Part shown: one piece after another, positions 18,580-38,271 of the stretch
Layout: every line of letters begins with the position of its first letter
How positions within the stretch are numbered: the stretch's first letter is position 1
Assembly: GCA_964391265.1 (NCBI GenBank)
Contig: CAYMLT010000001.1
Coordinates: 905-64,904 of the forward strand
Source: an uncultured archaeon
GTDB lineage: Archaea; Asgardarchaeota; Thorarchaeia; Thorarchaeales; Thorarchaeaceae
Reading direction: 5' to 3'
Length of the DNA stretch: 64,000 nucleotides
Translations under genes and position numbers: made by a program
The notes under the pieces: model-generated
The model's database searches: none
The model's input: only the letters and a program-made list of their open reading frames with translations
What the model was told of the DNA's origin: nothing

Positions 18580-18634
18580 AAAAAGGATGAAGGTCTTTGG
18601 CTTCCAAGTTACTTGGTTCTCAGACCTCATTCGG

Positions 18635-20770: not shown

Positions 20771-20818
20771 CCTGTAAATCGTACACCATTACAATTAAAG
20801 GCCATTGTTTCCTTCCTA

Positions 20819-22039
20819 ATGTCCGAAGTGAAGGTTATGGATATCCGTGCTGACTTTGCAATACTTGAGAATAATCCCGAGTTAGCGTACTTTGATTCAG
20901 CAAGCACAACACTTGTACCCAAGGTTGCAGTGAATGCAGTTAATGATTTTCTAACTCACACAGTTGCATCTACAAGACGTGGTGCACACAGTATGGCGAC
21001 AAGAGGCGCCACTGCCGTTGAAAACGCAAGAAAAACTATGGCAAACTTCCTGAATTCTGAAACGTCCCAACTTTCATTCCAAAAGTCAATCCCGTCTGCA
21101 GTAGCATCATTTGCTTTTGGATACAATTGGTATCACAATAACAAAGATACCATAGTCATTGCAGAAAATGAAGAGCATTCCGTCTTGGTCACTTTGCAGA
21201 GAGTTGCACAGATTTTAAACTTGAAAATCAAAATAATCCCAATAAATGAAAATGGAAGACTCGAAATTGGGACCCTTACTGATTTGATTGATAAGAAAAC
21301 AGGTATTGTGGCGGTAGGTACGACGACAGTAGGATGGGGTGTCAATAATCCTGTTTCAGCCATATCAAAAATAGCACATGAGAATGAGGCAGTCGTCTTG
21401 TCTGATGTCAGTCGTTCCATAGCCTTCAGTGAGAAATTGCCTGAGCAAGAAGGAGTAGATATTGCTGTGTTTTCTGGCAATGTTGGACTTATGGGGCCTC
21501 CTGGATTGGCCGTCCAGTGGATTGGAAGTGCTCTTGGAAGCAATCATATACCTGGAATCTTGGGAGGTTCAAGTGTAACAAACGTTCAATCCACTGAATT
21601 CGAGTTGGCATTATTACCTGATAAGTTCGAATCAGGAACAATCAACGTTCCTGCGATTGTTGGACTTAATGCGGCCTTAAACTACCTAGAAGAGTTGCAT
21701 GCCAAATCTATACAAACTCACATGAGGAATATATCAACATATTTGCAAAAGCGTCTATCTGCGATTCCCGAAGTTGTGGTGTTCAACAATACCATTGAAG
21801 AAACAACAATCTTTGGTTTTAATTTGGGAAATGATGATGTCATTAGTTGTCACGATATCGCGTTGTTCCTAGACGAATCTGGCATAGCTGTACGGAGTGG
21901 TTTACTATGTGCTCACCCACTTGTGAAGAAAGTATCATCTGAGGGAATAATTCAAGCTTCGCTACATGCTTACAACACTCTAGAAGAAATTAATCGTCTT
22001 GCGGATAATCTGGAAATTATTGCAAAAGATCTTGTTTGA
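20819..22039 (+). CDS. Class V aminotransferase / cysteine desulfurase-like (SufS-type) protein, apparently lacking the PLP lysine
   Basis: Fold-type I PLP enzyme with a group II active-site loop RSGLLCAHPL. The position of the SGHK PLP-lysine motif reads FSGNVGLMGPPG, with no Lys. Confidence 0.6.
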   Translation: MSEVKVMDIRADFAILENNPELAYFDSASTTLVPKVAVNAVNDFLTHTVASTRRGAHSMATRGATAVENARKTMANFLNSETSQLSFQKSIPSAVASFAFGYNWYHNNKDTIVIAENEEHSVLVTLQRVAQILNLKIKIIPINENGRLEIGTLTDLIDKKTGIVAVGTTTVGWGVNNPVSAISKIAHENEAVVLSDVSRSIAFSEKLPEQEGVDIAVFSGNVGLMGPPGLAVQWIGSALGSNHIPGILGGSSVTNVQSTEFELALLPDKFESGTINVPAIVGLNAALNYLEELHAKSIQTHMRNISTYLQKRLSAIPEVVVFNNTIEETTIFGFNLGNDDVISCHDIALFLDESGIAVRSGLLCAHPLVKKVSSEGIIQASLHAYNTLEEINRLADNLEIIAKDLV

Positions 22040-22051
22040 TTATACACTCTG

Positions 22052-22321
22052 TTATAGGATAAATGCCGGAGGATATGTTACGAAATACTGGATGACAATA
22101 GCAAGCATTATGCCACTAAAAACAAGACCTTTTCCTCGCTTAGAATTCACCTCAGTGAACCATAAGATTGCACCGACCAACACTACAATTACTGCCGAAA
22201 TTCTGCCTATGAATATTAGAAACTCCCAGATTTCTGCAAAATATCCCGCAATGAGGTTAGCGAAATCGGTTAACGGTGTTTGAAGCATGTAGAACATTGG
22301 TTTCACACAATGAACTATCAC
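22052..22321 (-). CDS. Small membrane protein
   Basis: 89 aa, two hydrophobic segments. Confidence 0.25.
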   Translation of the reverse strand: MIVHCVKPMFYMLQTPLTDFANLIAGYFAEIWEFLIFIGRISAVIVVLVGAILWFTEVNSKRGKGLVFSGIMLAIVIQYFVTYPPAFIL

Positions 22322-22342
22322 TCGATAGACAATATAAGCCCC

Positions 22343-24175
22343 TCATAGTACAGTTACAGACTTTGCCAAATTTCGAGGTTTATCAGGATCATACCTTTTC
22401 CGCGTAGCCATATAGTAACTGAATAGTTGTAATGGGACAATATATGGCATAATGGAAAATTCTGCCTCAACACCATGTGGAATCGAAAAGAACTCATTTG
22501 AAAGGGATTCCAATTCGGTGTCTTCTTCTTCAATCACTGAAATTACTGAGGCACCCCTTGCTTTCATCTCCATTATATTACCTATCAACCTAGAACGAGT
22601 ATCATCGTTGGGAGCTACAAATACGACTGGATACCCATCTTCTACCAATGCGATGGGACCATGTTTTGATTCACCGGCGGAGTAGCCCTCCGCATGATTG
22701 TACGCGATCTCCTTAAGCTTTAAAGCACCCTCAAAAGCCGTCGCCATGGAAATTCCTCTTCCTAGAAACAACATACTTGGACTCGTATAATAATCTCCAG
22801 CGATGCGTCTTGCATTTGCCTCTTGGGTAGCAATTACATTCGAAACAATATCAGGCAATCTACCGAGGGCCTCTCTTTTTCGTGAGATTATTTCACTATC
22901 AATAAATGAACTGCGATATCCAGCTGCTAAGGCGATTTGAGCAAGAGAGGTTAGCTGAACCATGAAAGTCTTTGTGGCCGCTACGCCTATCTCAGGACCT
23001 GCCTGTGTAATTATTGTATGATCCGCTAGTCGCGTAATTGAGCTACCTACAACATTTGTTATGGCCAATATTTTAGAGCCTAGTTTTTTCGCATATTTGG
23101 CAGCAACTACGGTATCAGTAGTTTCACCTGATTGAGTGATTGCAACCACAAGGTCAGTATCATTGATTGCGCCATATACAGTATCTTGAAACTCACTTGC
23201 AAGTTCAAGTGAGGGAAGAGTGCCACTAAGAGAGGCTAACATATGCCGCCCAGCCAATGCTGCATGACCTGAAGTTCCCATTGCAAGAAAGTAGGTCTTG
23301 CCAGCATTCAGTATCAAGTCCGCAGCCTTGTCAATTGCCTCTTGCGGCAATCTCAATGTATTGCGGATAGCTTCTGGCTGCTCGTGAATTTCCTTCAGCA
23401 TAAAATGGGGAAATCCACCTTTTTGCGCTTGATCAGCTGTCCAGCTAATCTTGATAGTTTCTCGATTGACTTGTGAACCATCAGAGAGTTTCTCAAATTC
23501 GATGCCATCAAGTGTCAATGTTGCGATTTCTCCATCCAGTAATAGCATCATATTATTAGTCATGGGTAAAAATGCGGGGATATCAGACGACACATAGGAA
23601 GTTGACCCATTCCGCCCAATGACAAGAGGATTTCCATCTCGAGTTACAACTATTTTGTCAGGTTCATTGATACACATGGCCACTACCGCATACGTGCCCT
23701 CAATCCGCTTCGTAACATACTTCATCGCTTCTTTCAGTGACATTCCATCAGCGATACAATCCTCAATTAGATGAGGAATAACTTCTGTATCAGTTTCCGA
23801 ATCAAACTTATGTCCCTTAGATAGAAGCTCTTCTCTAAGCGCAAGAAAGTTATCAATCACACCATTATGTACTACCGCTATTTCATTATTACAATCAAAG
23901 TGAGGGTGCGAATTGTATAGCGATGGAATCCCATGAGTCGCCCATCTTGTATGTCCAATACCTATTCGGCCAGGTAAATCATCAAGATTGAGTTTCCTAT
24001 GCACATCATCAATCTTACCTTTATCCTTCTTCGAGTATAGTCTACCCATAGATATGGTGGTCACTCCTACAGAATCATACCCTCTATACTCTAATCTCTT
24101 CAATGCCTGATGAATGAAAGGCGCTACTTCTCCTTTCTCCTGTATGACTCCGATAATGCCACACATACTTTTCAA
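22343..24175 (-). CDS. glmS: Glutamine--fructose-6-phosphate aminotransferase
   Basis: N-terminal MCGIIG Ntn glutaminase domain and two SIS domains; 610 aa. Confidence 0.9.
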   Translation of the reverse strand: MKSMCGIIGVIQEKGEVAPFIHQALKRLEYRGYDSVGVTTISMGRLYSKKDKGKIDDVHRKLNLDDLPGRIGIGHTRWATHGIPSLYNSHPHFDCNNEIAVVHNGVIDNFLALREELLSKGHKFDSETDTEVIPHLIEDCIADGMSLKEAMKYVTKRIEGTYAVVAMCINEPDKIVVTRDGNPLVIGRNGSTSYVSSDIPAFLPMTNNMMLLLDGEIATLTLDGIEFEKLSDGSQVNRETIKISWTADQAQKGGFPHFMLKEIHEQPEAIRNTLRLPQEAIDKAADLILNAGKTYFLAMGTSGHAALAGRHMLASLSGTLPSLELASEFQDTVYGAINDTDLVVAITQSGETTDTVVAAKYAKKLGSKILAITNVVGSSITRLADHTIITQAGPEIGVAATKTFMVQLTSLAQIALAAGYRSSFIDSEIISRKREALGRLPDIVSNVIATQEANARRIAGDYYTSPSMLFLGRGISMATAFEGALKLKEIAYNHAEGYSAGESKHGPIALVEDGYPVVFVAPNDDTRSRLIGNIMEMKARGASVISVIEEEDTELESLSNEFFSIPHGVEAEFSIMPYIVPLQLFSYYMATRKRYDPDKPRNLAKSVTVL

Positions 24176-24257
24176 CTCACGTTCTATAGAATGGCATTGT
24201 TACCAACACTTCATCTCTAGAAAGAGTTTGTGTTAGGCTAATGAGTATGAAATTTAT

Positions 24258-24951: not shown

Positions 24952-25755
24952 GTGAGTCAATTGAACGAATTTGTACTGGTGAAACTTGGAGGCTCAGTAA
25001 TTACTAAGAAAGATATGGTCCCTCCAACAATCAACATACCTGAAGTTATTCGAATTGCGAAGGAAATTCAGGGATCAACAAAACCTTTGGTAATAGTATT
25101 GGGCGGTGGGGCATATGGGCATCAAGCGGCTCACAAATATGGATTTGAAAACGCTGATACTCCTGCATCTAGACTACTTTCAGGGATTCCAGCAATTAGA
25201 CATAATATGAACCTTCTATCAGGCGGAGTTGAAACTCTATTACAATCCGAAGGCGTTTCATCAGTTGTAATCCCTCCATTTCCTATAGTGAATCTTATCG
25301 ATGGTCAGATAGAACGATTTCCTCTAGAAATAATAACAAAGACACTGAACTCAGGCCACACAGTTATTACTCATGGAGATGTTTGTTACGATAGCACCAG
25401 AGGAGCATCCATACTGAGTGGGGATACAATAATAGCGTATCTTGCAAATCAGCTCAATGCAAGCAGTGTTTTTGTTGGAACCAACGTTGATGGTGTCTTA
25501 GATGCAAATCCAAATGAAAATCCATTCGCACAAATAATTCCAACTATTAGTGAAGGCAACAAGGAACAAGTCATTCGAGTAGCTGGTCCATCGAGTTCTA
25601 CAGACGTGACAGGAGGAATGGCGAAGAAGATACATGATCTTTTTCTAATATCGCAACAAGGAATAGAGGTAGCAATCTTCAATCTGTCCGTCCCAGGGCG
25701 CCTCGAGGGTCTTCTGAAAGGTGATCAAGTCATATGCACTCGGATTTTGGCTTAG
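24952..25755 (+). CDS. ipk: Isopentenyl phosphate kinase (amino-acid-kinase fold)
   Basis: LVKLGGSVITKKD...VLGGGAYGHQAA, the IPK pattern; 267 aa. Confidence 0.7.
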   Translation: MSQLNEFVLVKLGGSVITKKDMVPPTINIPEVIRIAKEIQGSTKPLVIVLGGGAYGHQAAHKYGFENADTPASRLLSGIPAIRHNMNLLSGGVETLLQSEGVSSVVIPPFPIVNLIDGQIERFPLEIITKTLNSGHTVITHGDVCYDSTRGASILSGDTIIAYLANQLNASSVFVGTNVDGVLDANPNENPFAQIIPTISEGNKEQVIRVAGPSSSTDVTGGMAKKIHDLFLISQQGIEVAIFNLSVPGRLEGLLKGDQVICTRILA

Positions 25756-28700
25756 ATTAGAATCGAAGCCAAATCATCATCCATAGTTTTCATAATCAAG
25801 TTTGAGGGCGTAACAACACTATCATCAAGATACTCTGATGCAGTAAGAATGCAAATCATTTCGGTAGACTCACAAGTTCTACAAGCAATTTCACTATGAA
25901 GCCTTAGCAGAGTATTCAATTCCTGCTGTGTTGGAAAAATCACATAGGATTTCTTATCCGCACAAAGGTCATAATAGCCATGTCCCTCGTGAACAACTGT
26001 TGCTCGTTTTTTGAGCTCATTCGTAAGTTCATGTATGGCTTGATCTTTCAGTTCTCTTAGTACTGCGGTATTGACAATCCATAGTCCCTCTTCAATGTCA
26101 ACTAGTCCCTTATCCTTCCCCATTCTTACAGCCACTAACATTTCATCTGCCAATAACTCAGTGAGCGCTCTCCTGCCCTCTTCAGCGTTCATGGGGGCTG
26201 CTCTTCCTTTTTTGGACTGCAATGCAGTTGTGTCAATAAATTCCAATAGTGCTTCCCAGACAACCTGTCCCTTCGAAATATCAACAAAATCTTGGATTAA
26301 CCCAAACCAAAGCCGCATTTGCACTGCACGACTAGTCGCTGGCCCCACATCATGTACCGCCTCTATTAAATCAACTCTCGTAGATTCGGGATCAGTATCA
26401 GACAAATCAAGAAAACCTTTCTCAGGAGCATATAGCCCCCCGCTCATGTCCATAATCAGTTTGTCTAGAGAACTTGGAAACGCAGACACAACCGAAACAG
26501 CCTCGAATTCTTCATGCTTGTCTAAAGTTTCTCTAAGTTTAGCTGCAGCAACACTACCTCGAATAATTACAATAAGTTCCTTAACACCATTTCGTAGATT
26601 TCTCATATGATGACGAATTACCTCTGCAACGGAATCGAAAGAAGATGCCTTCAGATGCTCTGGAATTATTATTATTGCGGAATCATCAACTAAGATATCC
26701 GGGCCATCTTGATCCTGATCATTGACCTGGCAGCTTTCTCCTAATCTATTTAGAAAATAATTGACAATAACCCTCTTGACCGCAGAAAGTCCCTTTCCCG
26801 AAGCTGAATATACAAACCCCCCTGGAACAAGAGGGATTGCTTCACGTTGGATTGTTGATAGTGAAACAAGGTCTCTAAGGATTTCTGTGGCATCAGCATC
26901 TGACATTTTTGAATCAAGGGATTTTAGAAAACCTAGGATATCTTCTTGAGTTGTGATTTCTTGTGATGCAAGAAGTGCTATGACGTGACTTGCAATTCCT
27001 CCAATTCTATCAAATACAGCTGGTTTCTCATTCTCCTCTTGAACTGAAATCAGCTTACTTTCACTAGTTAGAACGGATACCGGTTCAATAGCCCCAATGG
27101 ATTTGCTTTCCTCTGATGAGTGAGGAGCTGTTTCTTCAATGGAATCGATGTAATTTGAGATTATGAATGGATCTGTTTCAATTTCGAATGCATTACATTG
27201 TGGTATCAAAATAAGAGCTCGACCGCGTTGCATCGTTCTTAGATATTGTTCTTGACTTGGTTCTATTGACATAAAGCGTCCTCCAACTTGACTATCATAA
27301 GGAAGTCTGAATGTAATCTTAGTTGAGGTGTTTGCCAAGATATTAGTAGAAATGTTAGGGCGTGTGGAAACTACAATGACCCCTTGTCCAGTAGCTCGCT
27401 GAAGTATAACCATTGATTCTCCAGTCGTCACATCAGCAGCTGAATCTCTTGTGTAACTCTCGGGTACAAGGTTACTTGCCTCTTCAAGAACAACTACATG
27501 ATGAAGTCCTGGAATGATACCTCTTTTCATTGCCGAATCAAAAATTCGCTTTGCTACAAGATTGTAAAGTAATCTTGCAGAATCCATTCCACCTGTTCGA
27601 GAAACATAACGCAAATCAAATACAACACGCCTATCCATCAAGCTAGAGATACTGAAGGAATTCGGTCCTCCCCTAAGTATCGTCCCTAAGGGTTCTCTAG
27701 TCAATATCTCCAATCTATTTAGTAGTGCATCTCTCGTCATCTGTCCAACTCGATCATCCTTTGCAATGGAGTTTACCTTCTTTATCAAGAAATCCAATGA
27801 ATAACCATCTGTTTCATGGAGTGCGGTTGCTGTAACCGATTCACGGAGTAACTTTTCCATAGCTGGTGACAGCTCAGAAGAGCTATTTTCACGAAGCAAC
27901 TCTCGCAGAAGTACGAATGTAGAATGAGCTTGGTGAGAATCGTTTTCAAAATCAAAAAGGTCAATCACAAATGCTGGGTCTAGTCCTGGCCGTAGGATAA
28001 CCACATCACTCAATTTTTCCAAATCGGAATATTCTGAGCCTTTGACATCAAAAATCCACCATGGTACATTTGTTTTGGTTGAGAGCTCAGCTATTAGTTT
28101 TTTCACAAGTGTAGTTTTTCCTGTTCCGGTCGCTCCAAGAATGGCAATGTGTTCGCGTAACCAATCAATTTGTAAACCTACAGAACCAAGTCGCTTTTCT
28201 CCATATATTGCCCAACCTATTGGAATATCATTTTCAATATAATCACTAGATGGTATTTGGAAGAGTGGCCCTTCGGTAGAAGCAATAGCAGGCAGCTGTT
28301 GAACTGGCGTATTTACGTATGCAGCTAGCGTATTAGCATGCATTCTTTGTTTCTTGACATGCCGCCGCATAAGCAGTCTATAAGACATTCTTTGGCTTAT
28401 CGGCTTTTCCTGTATTGATAGTGAATCATCTCCTCCCCAAAGTGAGAGAAAAAGGCCTTTCACTCCCTCAAGACTCGACTGCAAATCTGCGGAATTTGTC
28501 CCTCTAACAACAAGATAGAGTGACGAATCAAACCAACCTGAATTCTCATTAATTTCCTCATACCGTCCAAGTAATGCTTTCTTTTCTGCTTGATCGGCTA
28601 GAGAATCGTCATTCGTCTTCTCCTTAGCTTTAATACTTCTCCACTTTCGTTCCATTGCCCTGCGTTCCTTGCCTGGCTTTGTTCTGGAAAATACAGTTGT

Positions 28701-29600
28701 TAATGACAACGAGTAACCTTGCCTAAGTGCTGTTGAGATGAAAGTACCTATCTGTGATGTTTTCTCCGTCGGAAACACTTTTGGAGTGCCATTAATCACT
28801 AGTATCGCTTCTTTCCCAAAATCACTTGGTGCCTTTTCTAAACTCTCAATTAGTGATGCGCCTATGGAAGATTGGATTACCTTTGATAATTCATCCTTTT
28901 TTGCTAGATTGACTTCCACTCTCTCAAGTGAAGCAAGAAGAATTGCTTCAGTTCTAGTTGCCTCTCTTCTAAGGACATCCTTGATTTCATCAGTGTGTTT
29001 TGCCGAAGTTGTTATGAAAATGCGAAGAAATGGTCTTCCAGACATTATTCCAACCTCATAGGCAAAACTGGTTCTCCTATCCATACCTGCACGTAACGCA
29101 AGCAACATAGCAGTGTTATACATTGGTTTATCCTCATACTCAATAACAGATCCTGCGGCTGTAGTTAGATTGAGGCAAACGAAACCCAATGTATGGTCAT
29201 AGATATTAAGAAACAAAAACTCATCATCCAGTACAATATCAATTCCTGCTTGAGATACGCTGTATTTTGTAATCGCACTACCTATGAGAAGTGGCAACAA
29301 ACACAGAAGAGATTCGACAAATAATCTATTTGGAATAAAGACAGAATATGTAGCACCAAATAGAGGCATCAGGTAAACGACCAATAGGTAGACACCACTG
29401 ACTATCATACATGTAATCCAACCAAGTCTGATTAGACTCACATGACGGTTACTTAAAGCGAAATAACCTGATTTATCTGATTCAGGTCTAATGCGAATCA
29501 TATCAAGATACCACGTATAGATGCACTGGAATGCTATGCTATAGTATACCATAACACACTGCACGAATTTGTTTCCCACTATCCCATATGAACTACCCAC
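25752..29600 (-). CDS. Membrane-anchored HerA/FtsK/VirB4-like P-loop ATPase with long unknown N- and C-terminal domains
   Basis: 1282 aa with about four N-terminal TM helices. Walker A ILGATGTGKTT, a DxKGE-like FDVKGSE motif and Walker B HVVVLEEASNL (HerA/VirB4-type). The roughly 480-aa C-terminal extension matches no motif I recognise. Confidence 0.55.
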   Translation of the reverse strand: MGSSYGIVGNKFVQCVMVYYSIAFQCIYTWYLDMIRIRPESDKSGYFALSNRHVSLIRLGWITCMIVSGVYLLVVYLMPLFGATYSVFIPNRLFVESLLCLLPLLIGSAITKYSVSQAGIDIVLDDEFLFLNIYDHTLGFVCLNLTTAAGSVIEYEDKPMYNTAMLLALRAGMDRRTSFAYEVGIMSGRPFLRIFITTSAKHTDEIKDVLRREATRTEAILLASLERVEVNLAKKDELSKVIQSSIGASLIESLEKAPSDFGKEAILVINGTPKVFPTEKTSQIGTFISTALRQGYSLSLTTVFSRTKPGKERRAMERKWRSIKAKEKTNDDSLADQAEKKALLGRYEEINENSGWFDSSLYLVVRGTNSADLQSSLEGVKGLFLSLWGGDDSLSIQEKPISQRMSYRLLMRRHVKKQRMHANTLAAYVNTPVQQLPAIASTEGPLFQIPSSDYIENDIPIGWAIYGEKRLGSVGLQIDWLREHIAILGATGTGKTTLVKKLIAELSTKTNVPWWIFDVKGSEYSDLEKLSDVVILRPGLDPAFVIDLFDFENDSHQAHSTFVLLRELLRENSSSELSPAMEKLLRESVTATALHETDGYSLDFLIKKVNSIAKDDRVGQMTRDALLNRLEILTREPLGTILRGGPNSFSISSLMDRRVVFDLRYVSRTGGMDSARLLYNLVAKRIFDSAMKRGIIPGLHHVVVLEEASNLVPESYTRDSAADVTTGESMVILQRATGQGVIVVSTRPNISTNILANTSTKITFRLPYDSQVGGRFMSIEPSQEQYLRTMQRGRALILIPQCNAFEIETDPFIISNYIDSIEETAPHSSEESKSIGAIEPVSVLTSESKLISVQEENEKPAVFDRIGGIASHVIALLASQEITTQEDILGFLKSLDSKMSDADATEILRDLVSLSTIQREAIPLVPGGFVYSASGKGLSAVKRVIVNYFLNRLGESCQVNDQDQDGPDILVDDSAIIIIPEHLKASSFDSVAEVIRHHMRNLRNGVKELIVIIRGSVAAAKLRETLDKHEEFEAVSVVSAFPSSLDKLIMDMSGGLYAPEKGFLDLSDTDPESTRVDLIEAVHDVGPATSRAVQMRLWFGLIQDFVDISKGQVVWEALLEFIDTTALQSKKGRAAPMNAEEGRRALTELLADEMLVAVRMGKDKGLVDIEEGLWIVNTAVLRELKDQAIHELTNELKKRATVVHEGHGYYDLCADKKSYVIFPTQQELNTLLRLHSEIACRTCESTEMICILTASEYLDDSVVTPSNLIMKTMDDDLASILI

Positions 29601-29742
29601 AGTTTTGGAATAATCTTCTATCCGAATCTATAGGAGATTAAAAGGAATTCAGGTTGACTCAAATAGGAAACACAAAACATGCTTCAGTTTCGCTCAGCCA
29701 TGAGACCATTCATTCCAACAATAGTCGCTAGGTGGTAAACTC

Positions 29743-31704
29743 ATGAAAACAATCAGATGTGCAACAATCCTCTTCATTGGACTTATTTTCATAGTTGGAA
29801 TTAGTACACATCCGGTATTCGCTGAAGAAACGACAGTCGTATCACGCGGAGAACTTTTCACCCTTACAGCTACACTTTTTTCAAATGGCACTTCTGGGAT
29901 CCCTTTGCCCAACCAAGTTGTTTGCTTCTTTGACCAATCATACAATGAATTGATGTCACAAGCAATCACCAACGGCGAGGGAATCGCTTCTATTGACTAT
30001 TCGTTTGATTATGACCACCCTCTTGGACCCACACTTGTAAATATTACATTTACTGGAAATGAATCGGTATCACTAGCACCTACATGCCAATGGCTGACAC
30101 TGGTGGTTACTTCCTCGACCACCATAACTATCACTACATTAGATACGGTATACGCTCCAAATGATCATCTAAGTTTCTCATCCCGATTGTCTGATGACTC
30201 AGGAACTCCAATCAATAACGCAGAACTGTCAATTCTTTGTGATTCCAAATTCATTACATCTAGCTTAACAAATACAACAGGGCATGTTCTATTTGACATT
30301 ATCCTTGATTTTACCAATTTTAGTTTGGGGCAGCATACAATCGATGTTGTCTACAACGGCGACCAAAGCAGATTTTATAGAGGAGCTACAATAAGCTTTC
30401 AGATAGCCATTAATCAACTCCTTCCTACCATAGAACTAGATGGCATTACCAACAATCCAGTAATATTAAACCAAACATGGAATGCATCTATACAGTTACA
30501 GGCTGAAGACAAAACGCTAGCATATAGTCCGATAGATATTCTCCTAGATGATACCTATTTGTATACAATATATACAGATGAACTGGGAAATGCTGAAGTA
30601 CGTCTTCACATCAATCAAACTTTTGAAATCGGCGAGCATAATCTCGTATTCGAGTACACAGGAAACAATCGATATCACTCATCGACGACAGATGTGGTAA
30701 TAAACATAGGAAGTCCAATCTGTCTAAATGTGACACCTTTGAACTTTGCTGAGATTGGAAGCTTCTTGAGGCTTAGAATCACTGCATTCGATTTATATTC
30801 TCGGTCGCTACCGTATGGTATTATTCAAGTTTCAGACCAACTATCAGGTAACAATATCACGACTACAATTTCAAATGCAGCAAAGATTGAAGTTTTATTT
30901 CCAGTTGAAGGTGAGATAGGAATTCGAACCCTTCAGGTGCAGGTTACGAATGGCGCATTACTGACCAACAATACTGTTTCTCTAATTATTGACGTTTTTT
31001 CAAGACCTCAGATGGAAATAGCAAACACCAACATTCTTGGATATGCTTATCCTTCTCAAACATGGATTCTATCTGTCCATATACACGATTATCGTGGCAA
31101 CCTTAGCAACCGAATTCTAGAATATTCCTTATCAGGCACTTCACAGATATCATCAACCATAACTGAAAACGATGGAATGTCCACCAATGAAGTGATTTGT
31201 CCTGATACAGAAGGGGACTATTTCTTATATGTAATATACAAAGGTAATGTATCTGAATATGAACTGCCTTGTAATCAAACACTTGCATTTACAGTCAGTC
31301 AAAAGATACCAATTGTAGTGTCGCTTGAAAAGTATGAAGTAATCAGACCATTGAACACAATTGAAGTCACTTTGCGTCTCCAGAGTTTGAATGGGACTTA
31401 CCCAAAGGATGTAGTAGTAATTTACCAATGGTTGTCTGTTGAAAGTTCAAAACCTTCTAGTTTGGAAGGATATCTTGACATCCAGCTCCCAATACCATCT
31501 AATTCAGGTGTGTATTTGTTAATGTATGAAATATCACCAACCAACGGAATATTATCGCATTCCGGGGTTATTTACATCATCATTACTTCTACTGACGCTA
31601 ATGCATCTGAAGGAATTGGACTATATGGTATCACTCTTGGATTCGTGGGATCTGTGTCCATTTTTTCCATTCCGTTTGTTAGACGCCGACTTATTGTTCA
31701 CTAA
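29743..31704 (+). CDS. Secreted, C-terminally anchored surface glycoprotein (Ig-like repeat-rich)
   Basis: Signal peptide, at least 14 N-x-S/T sequons, a C-terminal TM helix followed by RRR. 653 aa. Confidence 0.5.
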   Translation: MKTIRCATILFIGLIFIVGISTHPVFAEETTVVSRGELFTLTATLFSNGTSGIPLPNQVVCFFDQSYNELMSQAITNGEGIASIDYSFDYDHPLGPTLVNITFTGNESVSLAPTCQWLTLVVTSSTTITITTLDTVYAPNDHLSFSSRLSDDSGTPINNAELSILCDSKFITSSLTNTTGHVLFDIILDFTNFSLGQHTIDVVYNGDQSRFYRGATISFQIAINQLLPTIELDGITNNPVILNQTWNASIQLQAEDKTLAYSPIDILLDDTYLYTIYTDELGNAEVRLHINQTFEIGEHNLVFEYTGNNRYHSSTTDVVINIGSPICLNVTPLNFAEIGSFLRLRITAFDLYSRSLPYGIIQVSDQLSGNNITTTISNAAKIEVLFPVEGEIGIRTLQVQVTNGALLTNNTVSLIIDVFSRPQMEIANTNILGYAYPSQTWILSVHIHDYRGNLSNRILEYSLSGTSQISSTITENDGMSTNEVICPDTEGDYFLYVIYKGNVSEYELPCNQTLAFTVSQKIPIVVSLEKYEVIRPLNTIEVTLRLQSLNGTYPKDVVVIYQWLSVESSKPSSLEGYLDIQLPIPSNSGVYLLMYEISPTNGILSHSGVIYIIITSTDANASEGIGLYGITLGFVGSVSIFSIPFVRRRLIVH

Positions 31705-31717
31705 AAAGCATAATTGG

Positions 31718-31792
31718 TGCTCCGGCCGGGATTCGGACCCGGGTCGGGGAATCGAGAACCCCCCATGCTTGGCCGGACTACACTACCGGAGC
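31718..31792 (-). tRNA. tRNA-Glu (anticodon CUC), with CCA encoded at 31715-31717
   Basis: Cloverleaf by hand: acceptor GCUCCGG/CCGGAGC, T-arm CCGGG-UCCGAAU-CCCGG, anticodon loop UUCUCGA. Confidence 0.75.
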
Positions 31793-31900: not shown

Positions 31901-32104
31901 CTAGGGAAAGAGGTTCGTTAGACCGCTCCAACTATCCTGAAGCAGTTGTAGTAGTCCCGATATTGCTTCTTGCGCCCATCCGGTAGCTTGAAGGATTACT
32001 GCAATAACAATGGATATCGTAATAACAGCGAGTCCAAGAAGAAGGCTTTCTTCTACCAGAGGGCCGCCGTTTTCATCATCTATAAGCGAAGAAGGACCAG
32101 TCAT
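31901..32104 (-). CDS. Small single-TM protein at the end of the rpo8-tfb-ATPase operon
   Basis: 67 aa with one long hydrophobic helix. There is no basic class-III signal peptide, so a pilin identity is unsupported. Confidence 0.25.
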   Translation of the reverse strand: MTGPSSLIDDENGGPLVEESLLLGLAVITISIVIAVILQATGWAQEAISGLLQLLQDSWSGLTNLFP

Positions 32105-32184
32105 AGTACTACACCTTACATTAAGATTCCCTAGTTGCTATTTAAGCCCCACAAATCAAAATCGAAATCGGAAAGATTCTAGTA

Positions 32185-33885
32185 TCATTTTTGAGAAGCT
32201 TTCGAAAATAATGGATATGAATTTGACCAGAGTGTGCTTCCAATATTGGACACATCATTACTTCCGTCAATAATCTTTTTGTGAAGAACCCTTACAAGAG
32301 CATCATACGCAACACGATAATTCTCAATCCCTTTTGCATTTGCCGAGTCATAGAATATACCATCCTTTGACCAAGAATCATTTCCAACCGGATTTTGTCT
32401 ATCATAGATTATATTTAGGCCATTGAAATCAATAATTCCCCGTTGTTCGCTTCGCTTAACTTCTGCTATCTGCTTCACATAACGAAATGACTCTCCAGGT
32501 CGAGGACGTTCAAGTGTCACAATTATATCCAGTAACGCAATGCTTGATTCATTGATATTGTGGTTCTTTGTCCAGCGTGTAACAAGACTGGATGCTGAAG
32601 AGCTATGACACGTCTGGATTGAACACAAGCCGGCAGCAATTGAATGAAACAAAGCAAGGCTGTGTTTCGCAGTCTGAATTTCTCCTAATATCAAATAGTC
32701 TGGAGACCTATGCAAGCTTTTCACAATTTCTGTAGATTTATCAAAGGTACCACCTGTTTCATCTACAGGATCAACTCTAATTCTAACTTGATGATGGTTT
32801 TCATACAAGCGACTTTCAATGGCGTCTTCTATGTAGACTTTGCGCCATATCTGTGGAGTTGTTCTGTCAAGTGCATTCATTAGAGTAGTTTTACCTACTC
32901 CTGGTCCTCCAGTAATCGTAATATTCATTCTGGAGTTGATTGCGAGTATCAGCAGAGCGGCTGCTTCAACACTTAATGTATCGTTTCTTATCAAATCCAA
33001 TATTGTGTATGGTTCGGAACGCGCACGCCTGATTTCAAGATGCATCCCTTCTGCCGCTAGAGGAGGAAGGCTTGCAGAAATTCGAAGGGGTACATTATAG
33101 ATTGTGATATCCGTTTTCAATGAAGGATTTCTTCTATCTAAATGCAGGTTGCTTTCAGCCCGTAGGAACGTTACTAATCTCACTAAATCTTCCTCCTCGG
33201 GCTTCCAGGATATCAGGACCCGTCCTAACCTACGGTGATCAAAATATACTTGACTACCAGGACGATCGAGGTATATTTCCTCAACTTCATCATCTAAAAT
33301 AAGTGGGAATAGGAATTTAAGAATGGTAGAATTGTGTGCTATGATTTCCGAAATGTTGCCTTTTGTAGTAGAATTAATCTCTGGTAATGAAGACTCAATC
33401 TTTGTTATTACATCTGCAGACATATTTTGCAGCTTCTGCTGAAGCTTCCTCCTAGTTGGTTTCTGTCCTATAGAGTAACTTGTGATTTGGCTCAAATCAC
33501 ACACCAATGAATGTTCTAAAGAAGTTCTGGTACGCGGAACCGCATGATGCCAAGTATGGTCAGTAGTTTCATTATGAAAGAAAAGAGAAACGTAGGGGCC
33601 AACTATGTAGGCATCAACAAGATATTGTGCATTATCAACCAGAATATCTATAGAATCCATATAGACTGATTCCCAACTGTTCCCATACCATGGTGGTTCA
33701 ATGGGCAACATTGGACATTGAAGAGGTAAATGGATAAGATTCCTATTAGCTTCAATGAGAAGAAGTTTCTGCGATCTAGAAAACTCAGCAGCAATCAGCT
33801 CACAACCACGTGAAGCGACACGATGCACACATCCTTCACAGCGTGTATCTGGACATGTAATTGACCGTATTTTATCCATATACAT
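32185..33885 (-). CDS. VirB11/FlaI/GspE-family secretion ATPase with an N-terminal Cys4 cluster
   Basis: Walker A GGPGVGKTT, Walker B and Asp box PDYLILGEIQ, His box GLCSIQTCHSS. The N-terminus carries Cys11, Cys16, Cys19 and Cys28. Confidence 0.75.
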   Translation of the reverse strand: MYMDKIRSITCPDTRCEGCVHRVASRGCELIAAEFSRSQKLLLIEANRNLIHLPLQCPMLPIEPPWYGNSWESVYMDSIDILVDNAQYLVDAYIVGPYVSLFFHNETTDHTWHHAVPRTRTSLEHSLVCDLSQITSYSIGQKPTRRKLQQKLQNMSADVITKIESSLPEINSTTKGNISEIIAHNSTILKFLFPLILDDEVEEIYLDRPGSQVYFDHRRLGRVLISWKPEEEDLVRLVTFLRAESNLHLDRRNPSLKTDITIYNVPLRISASLPPLAAEGMHLEIRRARSEPYTILDLIRNDTLSVEAAALLILAINSRMNITITGGPGVGKTTLMNALDRTTPQIWRKVYIEDAIESRLYENHHQVRIRVDPVDETGGTFDKSTEIVKSLHRSPDYLILGEIQTAKHSLALFHSIAAGLCSIQTCHSSSASSLVTRWTKNHNINESSIALLDIIVTLERPRPGESFRYVKQIAEVKRSEQRGIIDFNGLNIIYDRQNPVGNDSWSKDGIFYDSANAKGIENYRVAYDALVRVLHKKIIDGSNDVSNIGSTLWSNSYPLFSKASQK

Positions 33886-33930
33886 CTAAATCTCACACCT
33901 ACTATTCCCACGACAACAGGACACGTCCAC

Positions 33931-34971
33931 TTAAACGGCTAAAGCCGCTTCTGCTTCAACAATGCTCTTTATCATACCAAAATGATCGCGGATACTGTAC
34001 TCAGCAACTTCTGTCGCTTGCGAGGCAAGCTTCTGAGTTAACACGCAGCGTTTTCCATGTTCGGATGCCAACAAACGATCACTTGCATACGTAGCAGATA
34101 CTGTGAATATGAATGGATTGCGCCCTCCGCGCTTTGAAGAAGGTACAAGATTCAAGACAAAAAGTACTTTCTCTCGTAGAAGGTTTTCGTAATCACGTGA
34201 AGTCCAACCGCGTGATTCAATTTTGCCTTTCACTTTCGTGTCATTAATTAACATTGATAAGACTCGCGGAACATAATCTTCTGGTTTCCTAATCTTAGGA
34301 GAGTGTCCTGTAAGGGATCGTATTTTTAGAGCTTCTCTAACAATTGCTCGCACATTCACTCGATGCCCACATTTCTCAAATGTATCTGCAATTTCTTCCA
34401 ATGTAATTGGAGCTCCCTCTTTGAATTCGCGAACAGACATCAATAAACAGACTGCTATAAGTAGAATATTATTAGTTACCTTTTCGGGGGACTCGTCTAT
34501 AATCTTCTTATAGAGATATGCTGTTCGATCACGAACCTGCTCGTTAAGCATAAGAAGTTTAGACACATGATTTAAAGTCCTGAGAGCTCGATATTTAGCC
34601 TCATTTTTTCCTATTCGAACCCTCGTACTGTAAACGTTTTTCAGTCTCTTGTATTTTTTCTGCATGGAACCAGGAAGAGACTGCCCATTCGCATCACGAA
34701 AGTATACATCCTTATGAAAACCAATATAGCTTCCAAGTCCATCCACAATGTGCATCCTATTTCCCAAGGAGCCATATACACTAGCATCCGGAGTTCCTGC
34801 CTTCTGCCGTTCTCCCATTTGATATGTAGGATTAACATACTCTTTAGAAATTACTACGCCACAATCAGAGCAAACAACAAAACCTCTGTTGATTATGATA
34901 GTGCCAGCGCACTCTGGGCATACCCCAGAAAGAACATTTGTTTCAATTGATACATCGACCAATGACCACAC
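33931..34971 (-). CDS. tfb: Transcription initiation factor IIB (TFB) paralog
   Basis: N-terminal zinc ribbon CPEC-x15-CSDC and two cyclin-like repeats; 346 aa. Confidence 0.7.
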   Translation of the reverse strand: MWSLVDVSIETNVLSGVCPECAGTIIINRGFVVCSDCGVVISKEYVNPTYQMGERQKAGTPDASVYGSLGNRMHIVDGLGSYIGFHKDVYFRDANGQSLPGSMQKKYKRLKNVYSTRVRIGKNEAKYRALRTLNHVSKLLMLNEQVRDRTAYLYKKIIDESPEKVTNNILLIAVCLLMSVREFKEGAPITLEEIADTFEKCGHRVNVRAIVREALKIRSLTGHSPKIRKPEDYVPRVLSMLINDTKVKGKIESRGWTSRDYENLLREKVLFVLNLVPSSKRGGRNPFIFTVSATYASDRLLASEHGKRCVLTQKLASQATEVAEYSIRDHFGMIKSIVEAEAALAV

Positions 34972-35144: not shown

Positions 35145-35543
35145 TCAATTCAAAGCTATGAAAATCCTTTCAGAATCGAACGCTTTTCTTTGTGTAGGCT
35201 TCGGTGATGGAATCTCAAATTCAAGACGAAGTCCTCCAATGGTTGCAACCACCTCAAAGTTTTCCATCTCATTAATTTTGAATACAGTTCCTTCTGCATA
35301 GAGCTTGGCATTCTCTCCTCTTGGAATTGGCTCGGAGCTAATTGTAACAACAACAGAATCCTTGACATTAAATGGATCACAAAGTGCATCAGGAAGCTCA
35401 AGTGTCAGTGTTGCGCTTTCTAATTTTGATGTTATCTTTAGTACTTTTAGCTTCTTTGTTTCCGCATCATCAATTGAACTAATTATAGCATCCTTTATTC
35501 GCACTGACATTATATCCATGTCTCCAATACCTTGCTGGGGCAT
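35145..35543 (-). CDS. RNA polymerase subunit Rpb8-like (Rpo8/RpoG-type OB-fold protein)
   Basis: TLTLELPDALCDPFNVKDSVVVTISS and YAEGTVFKI...TIGGLRLEFE align to the Rpb8 segments KLTLDIN..LFPVAAQDSLTVTIASS and MYGTAYKF...SFGGLLMRLEG. The alignment was made from memory. Confidence 0.5.
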   Translation of the reverse strand: MPQQGIGDMDIMSVRIKDAIISSIDDAETKKLKVLKITSKLESATLTLELPDALCDPFNVKDSVVVTISSEPIPRGENAKLYAEGTVFKINEMENFEVVATIGGLRLEFEIPSPKPTQRKAFDSERIFIALN

Positions 35544-35631: not shown

Positions 35632-38271
35632 TTGCGACCATATCTAGCTGTCATAATATCATTTGCAGCACTAGTGACTTTCTGTTTTGTTGTTCCAGTG
35701 TCGGCTTTGTATCTCGACTTTGAGTATTTTGAAACTGACCAAATGACGTATGAAGTAGGTGAAACAATCAATATGGTCACAAAAATGACTGCAAATTACG
35801 ATGAAGGTGGCTGGTGTTATGCATCATTTGCAGTAGTTACCGATCAGGGACCTGTTTTTGATGACAGCTACTATGTTGATTCATCGCCAGATGTCCGGTA
35901 TCTCACTTCATCTTACACTGTCATGCCTCAAGATACATCTCCATTTCCTGACCCCATAGTTGCATATGTAATCTTTAATGTCGAAATCTTTGACAAGTAT
36001 TCGCAAGGAGTGAGTGAAAATGTCGAAGTCAATATAACAAGAGGCATTATTCAGGTTCGCCCACTTTCTTCGCTGTCAATTGAAGCAAATAGCAATGCTT
36101 CCATTTCTCTAAGTATGGCAAGTCGCTACAATGAAAGTGTCCCATACGCGAATCAGGCTGTTTCAGTGGAAATCTATGATTTCAGTTCTTCACTTGTATT
36201 TGAAAATGTGACAAACACCGATATGTATGGTCATATCCTTCTTGAATGGGATTCTCTTCCCTTTCCTCTAGGAACCTATTCAATCCAAGTTGGCGGAAAT
36301 GACACCTCCTCATTCCATTCTTTTTCCGATTCACTGATTATGACTGTGGAACCTGAGAATTCAAGTATTAATATTGTTGCCGCCACTGAAGACATGTATT
36401 GTCAAACACCAAGTGGGATGGGCTTTGAATCAGCTAACATTGTTATTGAGCATGTAGATAAGAATGAAAATCCAATCGAGGGATCAATTATTTCATGGGA
36501 AACCGATTTTGCTAATGGCACCTTTAATTCTCAAGGTAATGGAATATACAATACAAACATATCATTCGTAACATCACCCGGTACATATATCGTAAACATC
36601 AGCGCCTTCAATTCTCAATATCAAAATGCAACCAACTATGTTTCAATAGATGTTTTCCCTCGAAATCTTCTAATCACAATAACAAATCAACAAGTCCTTA
36701 CTACGTCTGATGTAGAAATCGCAGTCGCGTTAAAAGACTGGCAGTCTGTAGAACAAATAGAATCACTTCCTGTTGAAATGAGTCTGGTTCTGGGGTCCTG
36801 GAATTATAGTGTAATAGAACTGTCTAACTCTTCAGGGATAGCATTATTCACAGTGAGTATTCCAAGTTCCAAATGGGGTACTGCAGAGATAACTGTAAAT
36901 GTGACTGCATCGCTCTATTATAACGAAGTACATACAACAACAAACATTGATGTTCTCTATGTGCCCCATATAACTAGCGAAATTATATTATCACCCATTC
37001 GAAACGAATTCGCACTTGCAAACCTAACAATTTTGGATCCATTAGGCTTTCCTTCTATTGGTCTAGAGATTTACCTCTTGGATTCCCAAGGCACTTCGAT
37101 AGAATCTGGATCTACCGACTCGCATGGAATAGTTAGCCTAAGATGGTTGATACCGTTTGATGCTCCACTAGGACCTTACAACTACACTATTCTTATTGAA
37201 ACAAACTCTCAATTTGTCCAAGCTATTTCGACTCCCTTGCAAACTGTAATTCATTACCCTCTATGGGTATCATCCACAAATACAACCTGGAATTTTGTTC
37301 GAGGGAGTAATACGGAAGTAGGAATTCTTTTGAAATCAGAAGACGGATTAATGCAATCTATTCCCCTTCTCCTGAATGATAGTCTGGGAGAATTTATGGA
37401 ATACATAATGATACCACTAGGAGTCTTGACAAATATTTCAATCAACATTGGTCCTACCGTGACAATTGGATTTCGGTCAATTGAAATCCTGATTCTGGAT
37501 TCAAATTTTGCACTAATGGGCAATCAATCAATTGACTCATCTATTCTTACAACAATTATATCGACAATCGACAATATTACTGTATTTCAAGGCGAAAATC
37601 TGGAATTTGATTTATTCACTTTAGATGACGCTATGCAAGAAGTGGAAGTCATAAATGTGAATATTTACCAGGGGGGGAATGAAACTCCATTTGCAAATCT
37701 GGTGAATGTGAATACGAACATACGCCAGATAATCCCCCTTCCCCAATGGATTTCTCCCGGGTCCCAACAGATTATAGTTGAAACATTCGGGAATTATTCG
37801 ATTCATGACTACAAGTGCTTGCTAATTGTGGTATGGATTCGAACAACGATTACAATTTCTATTGTTACAAAATATGGAGGAGCCATGATTCCGCAATCTG
37901 AAACTATGCCATACACTCCTTTCCATCAAGAAACTGCAGCAATAATCTCTTCAGGCGTAATAAGCAACCCGCCTCCAATCTTGTTTAATGGAACTACTAC
38001 AGAAGACTCCACAACCCGTGAAATTTCCCCTACCAGTTGTCCAAGGTTTAATTCAGGAACAAGTAACTTCTCAACTGTTTTCGAGAATGCTTTCAACTCA
38101 GTATCCGGAAATGGCCAAAGGGTTCGCAGTCTGATAGATTTAAAGGATGATTTACTTTCAATCATTGCCTCATCAACGGATCTTGAAGTGCTGCCAAATG
38201 AAACCACCCCCCATTCCGCCTTTTCCGGACCCGAAACAACAACATCTGAAATGAGATTCCTCTTTGTTTGA
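35632..38271 (+). CDS. Large secreted surface glycoprotein; the ORF runs 345 bp into the convergent korA gene
   Basis: Signal peptide, many N-x-S/T sequons and a candidate TM anchor near residue 730 (about 37.8 kb). The roughly 130 aa beyond the anchor overlap korA antisense and may be read-through. Confidence 0.45.
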   Translation: MRPYLAVIISFAALVTFCFVVPVSALYLDFEYFETDQMTYEVGETINMVTKMTANYDEGGWCYASFAVVTDQGPVFDDSYYVDSSPDVRYLTSSYTVMPQDTSPFPDPIVAYVIFNVEIFDKYSQGVSENVEVNITRGIIQVRPLSSLSIEANSNASISLSMASRYNESVPYANQAVSVEIYDFSSSLVFENVTNTDMYGHILLEWDSLPFPLGTYSIQVGGNDTSSFHSFSDSLIMTVEPENSSINIVAATEDMYCQTPSGMGFESANIVIEHVDKNENPIEGSIISWETDFANGTFNSQGNGIYNTNISFVTSPGTYIVNISAFNSQYQNATNYVSIDVFPRNLLITITNQQVLTTSDVEIAVALKDWQSVEQIESLPVEMSLVLGSWNYSVIELSNSSGIALFTVSIPSSKWGTAEITVNVTASLYYNEVHTTTNIDVLYVPHITSEIILSPIRNEFALANLTILDPLGFPSIGLEIYLLDSQGTSIESGSTDSHGIVSLRWLIPFDAPLGPYNYTILIETNSQFVQAISTPLQTVIHYPLWVSSTNTTWNFVRGSNTEVGILLKSEDGLMQSIPLLLNDSLGEFMEYIMIPLGVLTNISINIGPTVTIGFRSIEILILDSNFALMGNQSIDSSILTTIISTIDNITVFQGENLEFDLFTLDDAMQEVEVINVNIYQGGNETPFANLVNVNTNIRQIIPLPQWISPGSQQIIVETFGNYSIHDYKCLLIVVWIRTTITISIVTKYGGAMIPQSETMPYTPFHQETAAIISSGVISNPPPILFNGTTTEDSTTREISPTSCPRFNSGTSNFSTVFENAFNSVSGNGQRVRSLIDLKDDLLSIIASSTDLEVLPNETTPHSAFSGPETTTSEMRFLFV

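Follow-up and report, generated by a model that had tools for sequence, protein, structure and literature searches.

To our knowledge, chromosomal DNA-exchange machines derived from type IV secretion systems (T4SS) are known among archaea only in the Thermoproteota (Ced and Ted), and no paper connecting Asgard archaea with VirB4, Ced or DUF87 proteins turned up in literature searches. CedD, which is needed for DNA import, consists of a transmembrane (TM) segment, a VirB4-like N-terminal domain and a HerA/VirB4-like ATPase, and CedB and CedD each match just part of the VirB4 N-domain (PMC11868833). The window analysed here is a 64-kb stretch of a thorarchaeal contig that encodes an ATPase sharing the N-terminal TM region, VirB4-like N-domain and HerA-clade core of the Sulfolobales CedD and CedB proteins (PMC11868833); the genes are alike chromosomal and vertically inherited. 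We infer, with a probability of roughly 40%, that this ATPase is the motor of a DNA-translocation system of the Ced and Ted kind that derives from T4SS and is fixed in the chromosome; the system would be inherited vertically in Thorarchaeota and have relatives across the Asgard archaea.

The open reading frame (25752..29600, minus strand) gives the 1282 aa of the first-pass annotation when counted from its most upstream GTG at 29600. The frame itself stands, but the likely product by sequence comparison is 1249 aa, because the identical database protein and ~120 orthologs, all ~1250 aa, begin at the ATG at 29501 (MIRIRPESDK). With this start there are two hydrophobic helices (residues 15–48 and 59–84; AF2 and hydropathy scan) instead of the roughly four TM helices counted earlier, and the fused two-TM N-terminus is possibly VirB3-like. 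The domain that follows is present as described but is ~310 aa rather than ~250 aa in length and has a VirB4-type fold in place of an unknown one. Its alignment to TrwK/VirB4 spans 308 residues within a single protein, whereas CedB and CedD each cover a part. The P-loop core carries all of the motifs already picked out in the first-pass annotation, including FDVKGSEY as the DxKGE-like motif, and all are invariant across orthologs. Conservation is strong over the full length, including the ~480-aa C-terminal extension; this proves to be real and consists of two repeats of a winged helix with an alpha/beta domain. The protein thus combines a two-helix anchor, a VirB4-type N-domain, an intact core of the HerA/CedD clade and two C-terminal repeats (Table 1).

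Table 1. Coordinates of the ATPase gene, its domains and motifs, and neighbouring features in the window.
Feature	Coordinates	Strand	Evidence or remarks
81-aa two-TM hairpin protein (TM1, KRGKG loop, TM2), candidate partner	22052..22297	-	VirB2/CedA1-like topology
VirB4/CedD-like membrane ATPase, 1249 aa from ATG	25752..29501	-	identical 1249-aa database protein; >200 full-length orthologs
ATPase C-terminal repeat 2: winged helix + alpha/beta domain (residues 1054-1249)	25755..26342	-	conserved His/Cys cluster
ATPase C-terminal repeat 1: winged helix + alpha/beta domain (residues 829-1020)	26442..27017	-	
ATPase FtsK/HerA-superfamily P-loop core (residues 422-768)	27198..28238	-	Pfam DUF87, NCBIfam CedD and PDB HerA profile matches
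ATPase TRPN motif	27342-27374	-	invariant across orthologs
ATPase Walker B, VVVLEEAS	27474-27506	-	invariant across orthologs
ATPase Walker A, GATGTGKTT	28110-28136	-	invariant across orthologs
ATPase VirB4-type N-terminal domain (residues 88-400)	28302..29240	-	
ATPase N-terminal hairpin, two TM helices (residues 15-84)	29250..29459	-	hydropathy scan; AF2 helices
653-aa Ig-like surface glycoprotein, divergent partner of the ATPase	29743..31704	+	signal peptide, Big_3_5 Ig-like domain, 16 NxS/T sequons, C-terminal TM anchor
tRNA-Glu(CTC), putative	31715..31792	-	ARAGORN only; beside Ig-like gene
67-aa single-TM protein, prepilin-like N-terminus	31901..32104	-	G at -1, [GS]PL[VI]EE with Glu at +5, hydrophobic helix
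566-aa T2SSE-family (TadA/FlaI-like) ATPase, Cys-rich N-terminus	32185..33885	-	PF00437
Divergent TFB/TFIIB paralog, Zn ribbon + cyclin repeat	33931..34971	-	PRK00423, 57.8 bits against a cutoff of 384
132-aa Rpo8 (RpoG)-like protein	35145..35543	-	Pfam RNA_pol_RpbG, E 0.007, below cutoff, weak

The winged helices in the tail are of a generic type. Profiles of each alpha/beta domain found nothing significant in the PDB, and Foldseek matched only FokI and YaeQ, weakly and with E-values above 1e-3, so the nuclease-like character of these domains is tentative; the nuclease-like residues are not strictly conserved, and the alpha/beta domain of the first repeat is possibly restriction-endonuclease-like.

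Profile searches place the core with HerA and CedD. The Pfam DUF87/HerA central domain matches at E 9e-16, and PDB profile searches return HerA proteins but no VirB4 chain. The best NCBIfam match is CedD (NF053655; 2.7e-10, 39.5 bits against a cutoff of 600, residues 455–801 of the 1282-aa form), as it also is for the deep relative P0140 (1e-27, 97 bits). Scores for CedB (NF041017; 19.6 bits, cutoff 700), VirB4_CagE (TIGR00929; 18.4 bits, E 5e-4, cutoff 643) and HerA_Thermprot (26.6 bits, cutoff 800) are lower still. Among 29 family members, 23 match HerA_antiphage, 16 CedD, 11 VirB4_CagE (weakly) and eight CedB. Because every curated-family score lies far below its cutoff (39–97 bits against 600 for CedD), the ATPase is, by these scores, the equivalog of no known protein. 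Among characterised proteins it is most closely related to CedD and CedB, which belong to the Ced system for DNA import in Crenarchaeota. The likeness to TrbE/VirB4 and Ced ATPases proposed at first holds for the VirB4-type N-domain and the CedD-like core, but not at the level of equivalog scores.

There are also clear differences from the described proteins. CedD has 527 aa against 1249 aa, the thorarchaeal protein having the added 480-aa tail of winged helices and alpha/beta domains, and we know of no VirB4 protein with a comparable C-terminal tail. Relative to VirB4, TrwK and TrbE of bacterial T4SS and TedB of Thermoproteales, the VirB4 sequence matches are marginal, no VirB6, VirB8, VirD4 or relaxase was found, and the gene lies off mobile elements. 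Unlike Ced, the family is found in Asgard archaea rather than Thermoproteota, its partner is an Ig-like glycoprotein, and no CedA-like channel gene was found near the ATPase gene. It also departs from HerA of the HerA-NurA pair in having a membrane anchor and a VirB4-like N-domain rather than a HAS-barrel, and family searches found no NurA, Mre11 or Rad50 genes near it.

In Thorarchaeota the ATPase gene belongs to the chromosomal core, and relatives occur across the Asgard archaea; it is no plasmid remnant. A genome-wide scan, restricted to the full-length subgroup, finds a usually single full-length copy in ~75 species-level Thorarchaeota genomes (one closed chromosome included) at 39–87% identity and in a shared neighbourhood of IPK, S10, GlmS, OFOR and Cdc6 genes. 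Named relatives at 26–34% identity are all Asgard (Hel, Loki, Odin, Hod, Jord, Baldr, Ran, Njord and Frey lineages). The first-pass annotation regarded the locus as a degenerate integrated conjugative system, and VirB4-like and VirB11-superfamily ATPases do lie with surface proteins within 10 kb, with the putative tRNA-Glu gene adjoining the Ig-like gene; that tRNA, also predicted in three other loci (L005, L011 and L066), has no Rfam match at the gathering score. An integrated element or plasmid remnant is nonetheless extremely improbable. A mobile origin is contradicted by the synteny across ~75 species, with the same IPK/S10/GlmS/OFOR flanks, by the uniform G+C at the locus, and by database searches that turned up no relatives in IMG/VR, PLSDB or INPHARED, the latter two yielding just weak matches to part of the core. 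No relaxase or VirD4 was seen, and family profile searches found no integrase in the region, as had been noted; the patchy distribution of such elements is likewise not observed. Nor is the gene degenerate, since it is conserved over its full length with intact catalytic motifs.

Conserved chromosomal synteny, together with a best match to HerA/NurA or FtsK-like housekeeping proteins, had been named as pointing away from a transfer system; the synteny is indeed present, although the ATPase is neither HerA/NurA nor FtsK. A housekeeping pump similar to FtsK is fairly unlikely, although several features suit it. Such a pump, a membrane-anchored hexamer, would clear chromosomal DNA or segregate it during division or where the membrane constricts, with the winged helices standing in for the FtsK gamma domain. 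The gene is core and mostly single-copy: ~75 Thorarchaeota species have it, and every Asgard class sampled has relatives. It lies among replication and translation genes with Cdc6 ~13 kb away, and its product is strongly conserved full-length. FtsK/SpoIIIE also belongs to the same superfamily of hexameric pumps and likewise runs from TM helices at the N-terminus through the motor to a winged helix at the C-terminus. However, the N-domain is VirB4-type with no FtsK linker, the ATPase clade differs, and the models that the core scores with are those of HerA, CedD and VirB4, the FtsK matches being marginal (Pfam FtsK_SpoIIIE, PF01580, 20.6 bits against a cutoff of 24, E 3e-4, 52 residues only; PDB FtsK, E 0.1). 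A segregation pump would not be expected to be so tightly paired with an extracellular glycoprotein, nor to have small membrane proteins recurring near it (both described below).

The HerA matches also bear on a role as a HerA-type anti-phage defence ATPase, for which PADLOC gives matches to mad8 (4e-17) and several HerA defence models, and HerA_antiphage is the NCBIfam model that matches most family members. All of these matches are confined to the P-loop core and far below cutoffs, and the defence reading was rejected on that ground. A defence function is very improbable for a membrane-anchored protein with a VirB4 N-domain that is encoded by a universal, syntenic core gene rather than a variable island gene, and an effector partner (Sir2, nuclease or DUF4297) is lacking.

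The surface glycoprotein reported beside the ATPase gene has the features listed in Table 1, and its gene adjoins the ATPase gene in 80 of the 88 loci compared, that is, in every locus with upstream DNA. Within Thorarchaeota alone this adjacency carries little weight because the 25-kb block is syntenic as a whole. It is kept in four rearranged loci (L043, L066, L069 and L074), and L006 and L089 have an orthologous pair even though their ATPase is only 27–29% identical. In the Baldrarchaeia (L010) and Helarchaeota (L009) loci the ATPase gene stands alone among housekeeping genes. The second large glycoprotein (35632..38271), assigned at first to the same system, occupies a variable slot and does not qualify as a conserved partner; comparison does not support the two as paralogs.

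By analogy with the export of T4SS effectors or with EccC/EssC of type VII systems, the ATPase might power the secretion, insertion or remodelling of the Ig-like glycoprotein or another surface structure. Such a role in protein export or surface assembly seems quite unlikely. With its ordinary signal peptide at the N-terminus and its C-terminal anchor, the Ig-like protein needs no dedicated motor. WXG-like substrates were not seen, the conserved tail of winged helices and nuclease-like domains suggests nucleic acid, and the closest characterised relative works in DNA import.

Under the favoured reading as a DNA-translocation motor, the ATPase would act as a membrane-bound hexamer that uses ATP to drive passage of DNA across the cytoplasmic membrane in cell-to-cell exchange, with its C-terminal modules binding or handling the DNA and the divergently encoded glycoprotein serving in extracellular contact or recognition.

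The 81-aa hairpin protein is conserved in ~67 thorarchaeal loci, and in L008 and L091 a homolog is encoded 68–81 nt upstream of the ATPase gene (tblastn to the window, E 1.7e-14). From its topology and position it may be a VirB2/CedA1-type subunit, and would then perhaps contribute to the conduit. A firm VirB2 identity was rejected: Pfam TrbC matches one of 23 members, NCBIfam models give no match, and of 658 relatives in a large database at E ≤ 0.001 the 120 listed are all unannotated. Neither the 64-kb window nor any of seven distant related loci yielded a polytopic channel protein like VirB6, CedA or TedA.

The second ATPase, described initially as VirB11-like, is a T2SSE-family protein (T2SSE 1.9e-18, TadA-type 1.3e-26); its best matches are to TadA/FlaI-type models, and it belongs to a separate module with the Rpo8-like protein, the TFB paralog and the small 67-aa TM protein. 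The last may be a prepilin, judging from its sequence. Two of 20 members of its family have sub-threshold matches to Flp_Fap (E 9e-4) and Flp1_like (E 0.047), one non-thorarchaeal member each, and a Flp identity was set aside on these numbers. Orthologs of the T2SSE ATPase occur near the VirB4-like gene in L089 (35% identity) and the Helarchaeota locus L090 (40%), as do those of the 67-aa protein; TFB paralog orthologs are present in L089 (44%) and in L090 (40%), there directly upstream of the ATPase gene. All three lie at most 14 kb from the VirB4-like gene in three deep lineages with differing gene orders. No platform protein (TadB/C, PilC or FlaJ) or prepilin peptidase was found in the 64-kb window, and two ORFs at 39–42 kb have no family or PDB matches.

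The TFB paralog, TadA/FlaI-like ATPase and prepilin-like protein may together take the role that Ups pili and TFB3 have for Ced in Sulfolobales. A doubtful extension of the motor reading is an Asgard-wide DNA-exchange machine composed of a VirB4/CedD-like motor, Ig-like recognition, a VirB2-like hairpin and a pilus-like module under a dedicated TFB paralog. If correct, this would be an Asgard counterpart of Ups/Ced/TFB3 and would place regulated chromosomal DNA exchange in the lineage ancestral to eukaryotes. The motor reading itself, if true, offers in a core Asgard-wide VirB4/CedD-like ATPase and its surface partner a concrete candidate for DNA exchange or cell-cell interaction, which is relevant to horizontal gene flow and to scenarios of eukaryogenesis that involve contact between cells, and the few Asgard strains now in culture make the ATPase testable. 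Even if it serves segregation or secretion instead, the protein represents a large Asgard family that is universally conserved, has so far escaped annotation and has a clear domain map.

The separate module has a described parallel in the T4P-like clusters of subclade 4D in Pyrobaculum and Thermoproteus, which contain a TFIIB homolog, RPB8 and a secretion ATPase whose small N-domain is rich in Cys (Makarova et al. 2016, PMC4858521). As in these Thermoproteales systems (PMC4858521), a Cys-rich ATPase, a Zn-finger/cyclin TFIIB homolog and an RPB8 protein are clustered at 31901–35543 of the window. The likeness to subclade 4D (arCOG05558/05559) is drawn from gene architecture, and the window module is Asgard; its membrane partner is the 67-aa single-TM prepilin-like protein, whereas theirs has 4–5 TM segments. 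The Rpo8-like gene stands beside the TFB paralog in half of the loci (44/88).

The window is archaeal, with genes for isopentenyl phosphate kinase (IPK), a TFB homolog, 2-oxoacid:ferredoxin oxidoreductase (OFOR), S10 and GlmS, and the nearest database proteins belong to the Asgard class Thorarchaeota. The ATPase ORF is present, but because a 100%-identical database copy and ~120 orthologs (~1250 aa) start at ATG 29501, its product is likely 1249 aa rather than 1282 aa as in the first-pass annotation; residue numbers count from this Met. Two hydrophobic N-terminal helices follow from this start (hydropathy; AF2 helices 15–48 and 59–84), not about four as first thought. The HerA/FtsK/VirB4-type core was correctly recognized: its Walker A (GATGTGKTT), FDVKGSEY, Walker B (VVVLEEAS) and TRPN motifs do not vary among 40 aligned sequences, and conservation (mean column identity 64%) spans the full protein including the C-terminal extension of ~480 aa.

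Coordinates of the features discussed (window unless a related locus is named)
Feature	Position	Strand	Remark
2-TM hairpin homolog	22052–22297	-	
VirB4-like ATPase ORF	25752–29600	-	
Ig-like surface glycoprotein	29743–31704	+	653 aa
tRNA-Glu(CTC)	31715–31792	-	ARAGORN prediction
Small TM protein	31901–32104	-	67 aa
T2SSE ATPase	32185–33885	-	
TFB paralog	33931–34971	-	
Module from small TM protein to Rpo8-like protein	31901–35543	-	
Surface glycoprotein ORF	35632–38271	+	879 aa
Flank of two-ORF stretch	37926–39047		
Two ORFs	39257–41965	-	478 aa, 367 aa
Flank of two-ORF stretch	42415–42489		
L005, TnpB gene	8537–9808		
L089, Arf-family GTPase	21205–21693		
L090, row downstream of VirB4-like gene	17565–24182		

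By sequence the core belongs to the HerA/Ced/VirB4 part of the FtsK-HerA superfamily. Pfam DUF87 matches at 9e-16; the NCBIfam matches to CedD (2.7e-10), HerA (1.8e-6), CedB (3e-4) and VirB4 (5e-4) are all far under cutoffs. Run against the PDB, a family profile matches HerA structures (1e-13 to 1e-15) and no VirB4 chain. The N-domain is VirB4-type, its alignment covering 308 residues of TrwK/VirB4, and the C-terminal tail is of the kind that binds nucleic acid. Among 29 family members the NCBIfam models matched are HerA_antiphage (23), CedD (16; best 1e-27), VirB4_CagE (11) and CedB (8); that the protein is a defence ATPase is very improbable.

A complete HMMER search through 1.84 billion cluster representatives yielded ~10 full-length 50%-identity clusters, below which lie relatives of 26–34% identity that have the N-domain and ATPase core in common, with 1–6 N-terminal TM helices and variable tails. 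All source-named clusters are Asgard (Thor, Hel, Loki, Odin, Hod, Jord, Baldr, Ran, Njord, Frey, ‘Asgardarchaeia’ and Sif). Five Helarchaeota and Lokiarchaeota members (P0144, P0146, P0150, P0165 and P0198) have 4–6 predicted N-terminal TM helices versus two, and the extra helices might reflect fusion with a membrane-channel part; this region has no family match in the three members scanned (P0146, P0165 and P0198).

The first-pass annotation read the region as a degenerate integrated conjugative or type-IV-like system, or an undescribed one. However, when one genome was scanned for each GTDB species, 78 ATPase loci turned up in ~73 genomes of Thorarchaeota type, some of which bear the labels Promethearchaeota or Hermodarchaeota (full-length identity 39–87%), and one hit is a closed 2.58-Mb chromosome; in five assemblies another, shorter contig matches in part, either a second gene copy or assembly redundancy. 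Relatives with ~50%-identical ATPases keep the whole neighborhood: Cdc6, OFOR-alpha, a variable surface protein, an Rpo8-like protein, the TFB paralog, T2SSE ATPase, a 68-aa protein, the Ig-like protein, the ATPase, IPK, S10, GlmS and an aminotransferase. The G+C level across the region is flat (0.39–0.42), neither an integrase, as already reported, nor a relaxase is present there, IMG/VR contains no relatives, and PLSDB and INPHARED matches cover only about a quarter of the query, inside the ATPase core. Given the conserved neighborhood, flat G+C, lack of integrase and relaxase and lack of IMG/VR relatives, a mobile-element origin is not supported, and a degenerate conjugative element is extremely improbable.

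Gene order is shared so widely inside Thorarchaeota that it cannot by itself establish a functional link, and rearranged and distant loci were therefore examined. In a tblastn table of 88 loci the Ig-like gene adjoins the ATPase gene in all 80 that have upstream DNA, and the adjacency holds in L043, L066, L069 and L074, where the T2SSE, 67-aa and TFB genes have moved. A deep relative (P0140 and P0286, 937–940 aa; ATPase 27–29% identical) lies in another housekeeping context with an Arf GTPase nearby, and its divergent neighbor of 647–649 aa is a full-length homolog of the window Ig-like protein (23% identity, E 1e-20). In Baldrarchaeia (L010) and at one locus of Helarchaeota (L009) the ATPase gene is solitary among housekeeping genes. 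In one Thorarchaeota relative (L005) an IS605-type TnpB gene (OrfB_IS605/Cas12f-like TNB) sits between the Ig-like and VirB4-like genes, and the divergent intergenic region therefore tolerates insertion.

A gene for an ~80-aa 2-TM hairpin protein lies 68–81 nt upstream of the ATPase gene in L008 and Ranarchaeia (L091), and homologs occur in the window (E 1.7e-14) and ~67 Thor loci; a large-database search returned 658 proteins at E ≤ 0.001, the 120 matches listed being all unannotated. In several lineages its position is that of virB2, and by topology and position it is a candidate VirB2-like subunit. No polytopic membrane protein was found in the 64-kb window, and no VirB6/CedA-like channel in the window or related loci.

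Among characterised proteins, CedD and CedB come closest: both are HerA-clade ATPases that are encoded on the chromosome, anchored in the membrane, equipped with a VirB4-like N-domain and needed for Sulfolobales DNA import (PMC11868833); Ced and Ted are regarded as domesticated type IV secretion systems (T4SS; PMC9905601). The Thor protein has a VirB4-type N-domain, an intact motor and a nucleic-acid-type tail; its linked partner is an extracellular Ig-like glycoprotein, joined in several lineages by the 2-TM hairpin protein in the virB2 position. On these grounds we tentatively favor a chromosomally fixed, T4SS-derived DNA-translocation system (probability about 0.4). As rivals, an FtsK-like housekeeping pump for DNA and a motor for protein export or surface assembly are both unlikely. 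The alternative of an undescribed type-IV-like system is partly supported, and the original observation as a whole partly confirmed. Ced/Ted/T4SS-type VirB4-family motors are already known; we regard the domain architecture, conserved partner and phyletic range of this one as new. In the source records the protein is annotated as ‘ATP-binding protein’ or ‘DUF87 domain-containing protein’, and we found no literature linking Asgard archaea with VirB4, Ced or DUF87 proteins.

The ATPase first called VirB11-like is a PF00437 member with a Cys-rich N-terminus whose best matches are TadA-type and FlaI models. With a TFB paralog (Zn ribbon, one detected cyclin repeat), an Rpo8/RpoG-like protein (weak match) and a small TM protein, it has the architecture of the enigmatic T4P-like ‘subclade 4D’ of Pyrobaculum and Thermoproteus. 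There, as described by Makarova et al., a secretion ATPase whose small N-domain is Cys-rich goes with a TFIIB homolog and RPB8 but no pilins, and a transcription-related role was suggested (PMC4858521). Subclade 4D has been reported solely from those genera (PMC4858521); the window module is kept throughout Thorarchaeota, two further Asgard lineages (L089 and L090) have orthologs, and its membrane partner is the 67-aa protein. L089, a locus of the deep relative, has orthologs of the TFB paralog (44%), T2SSE ATPase (35%) and 67-aa protein (37%) 7 kb away. In L090 (Helarchaeota) the ortholog of the TFB paralog (40%) lies directly upstream of the ATPase gene, that of the 67-aa protein 2.3 kb downstream, and that of the T2SSE ATPase (40%) 8 kb downstream beside another signal-peptide, C-terminally anchored protein. 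The 67-aa protein has an invariant G, then [GS]PL[VI]EE and a hydrophobic helix, a motif resembling a class III (type IV prepilin) signal with Glu at +5, and is a candidate prepilin on this basis; the two non-Thor members of its family give sub-threshold Pfam matches (Flp_Fap 9e-4, Flp1_like 0.047). In Sulfolobales a single DNA-damage response unites Ups (a T4P module), the Ced ATPases and TFB3 (a TFB paralog), and the Thor parallel is suggestive by analogy only.

Downstream of the L090 VirB4-like gene are, in a row, a Roadblock/LC7-like protein, an Arf-family small GTPase, a 599-aa signal-peptide/TM-anchored protein, a 77-aa very hydrophobic protein and the T2SSE ortholog; an Arf-family GTPase also lies near the L089 locus. 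The tRNA-Glu(CTC) between the 3′ ends of the Ig-like and 67-aa genes has no Rfam match at gathering score; the same prediction recurs at the equivalent position in L005, L011 and L066 and is missing from L001, L003, L013, L039 and L063. The 879-aa ORF has 25 NxS/T sequons, a TM anchor near residue 728 and no significant similarity to the Ig-like protein; it shares 345 nt with the convergent OFOR-alpha gene, its last ~130 aa being antisense to OFOR, and its slot varies among relatives: L001 has no called gene there, L003 one of 551 aa and L005 one of 644 aa. The two ORFs between OFOR-alpha and tRNA-Gly(CCC)/Cdc6 (G+C 0.45 versus ~0.41) have no family or PDB match, and since their flanking genes are directly adjacent in L001 and L003, the stretch looks like a ~3.2-kb lineage-specific insertion beside a tRNA gene.
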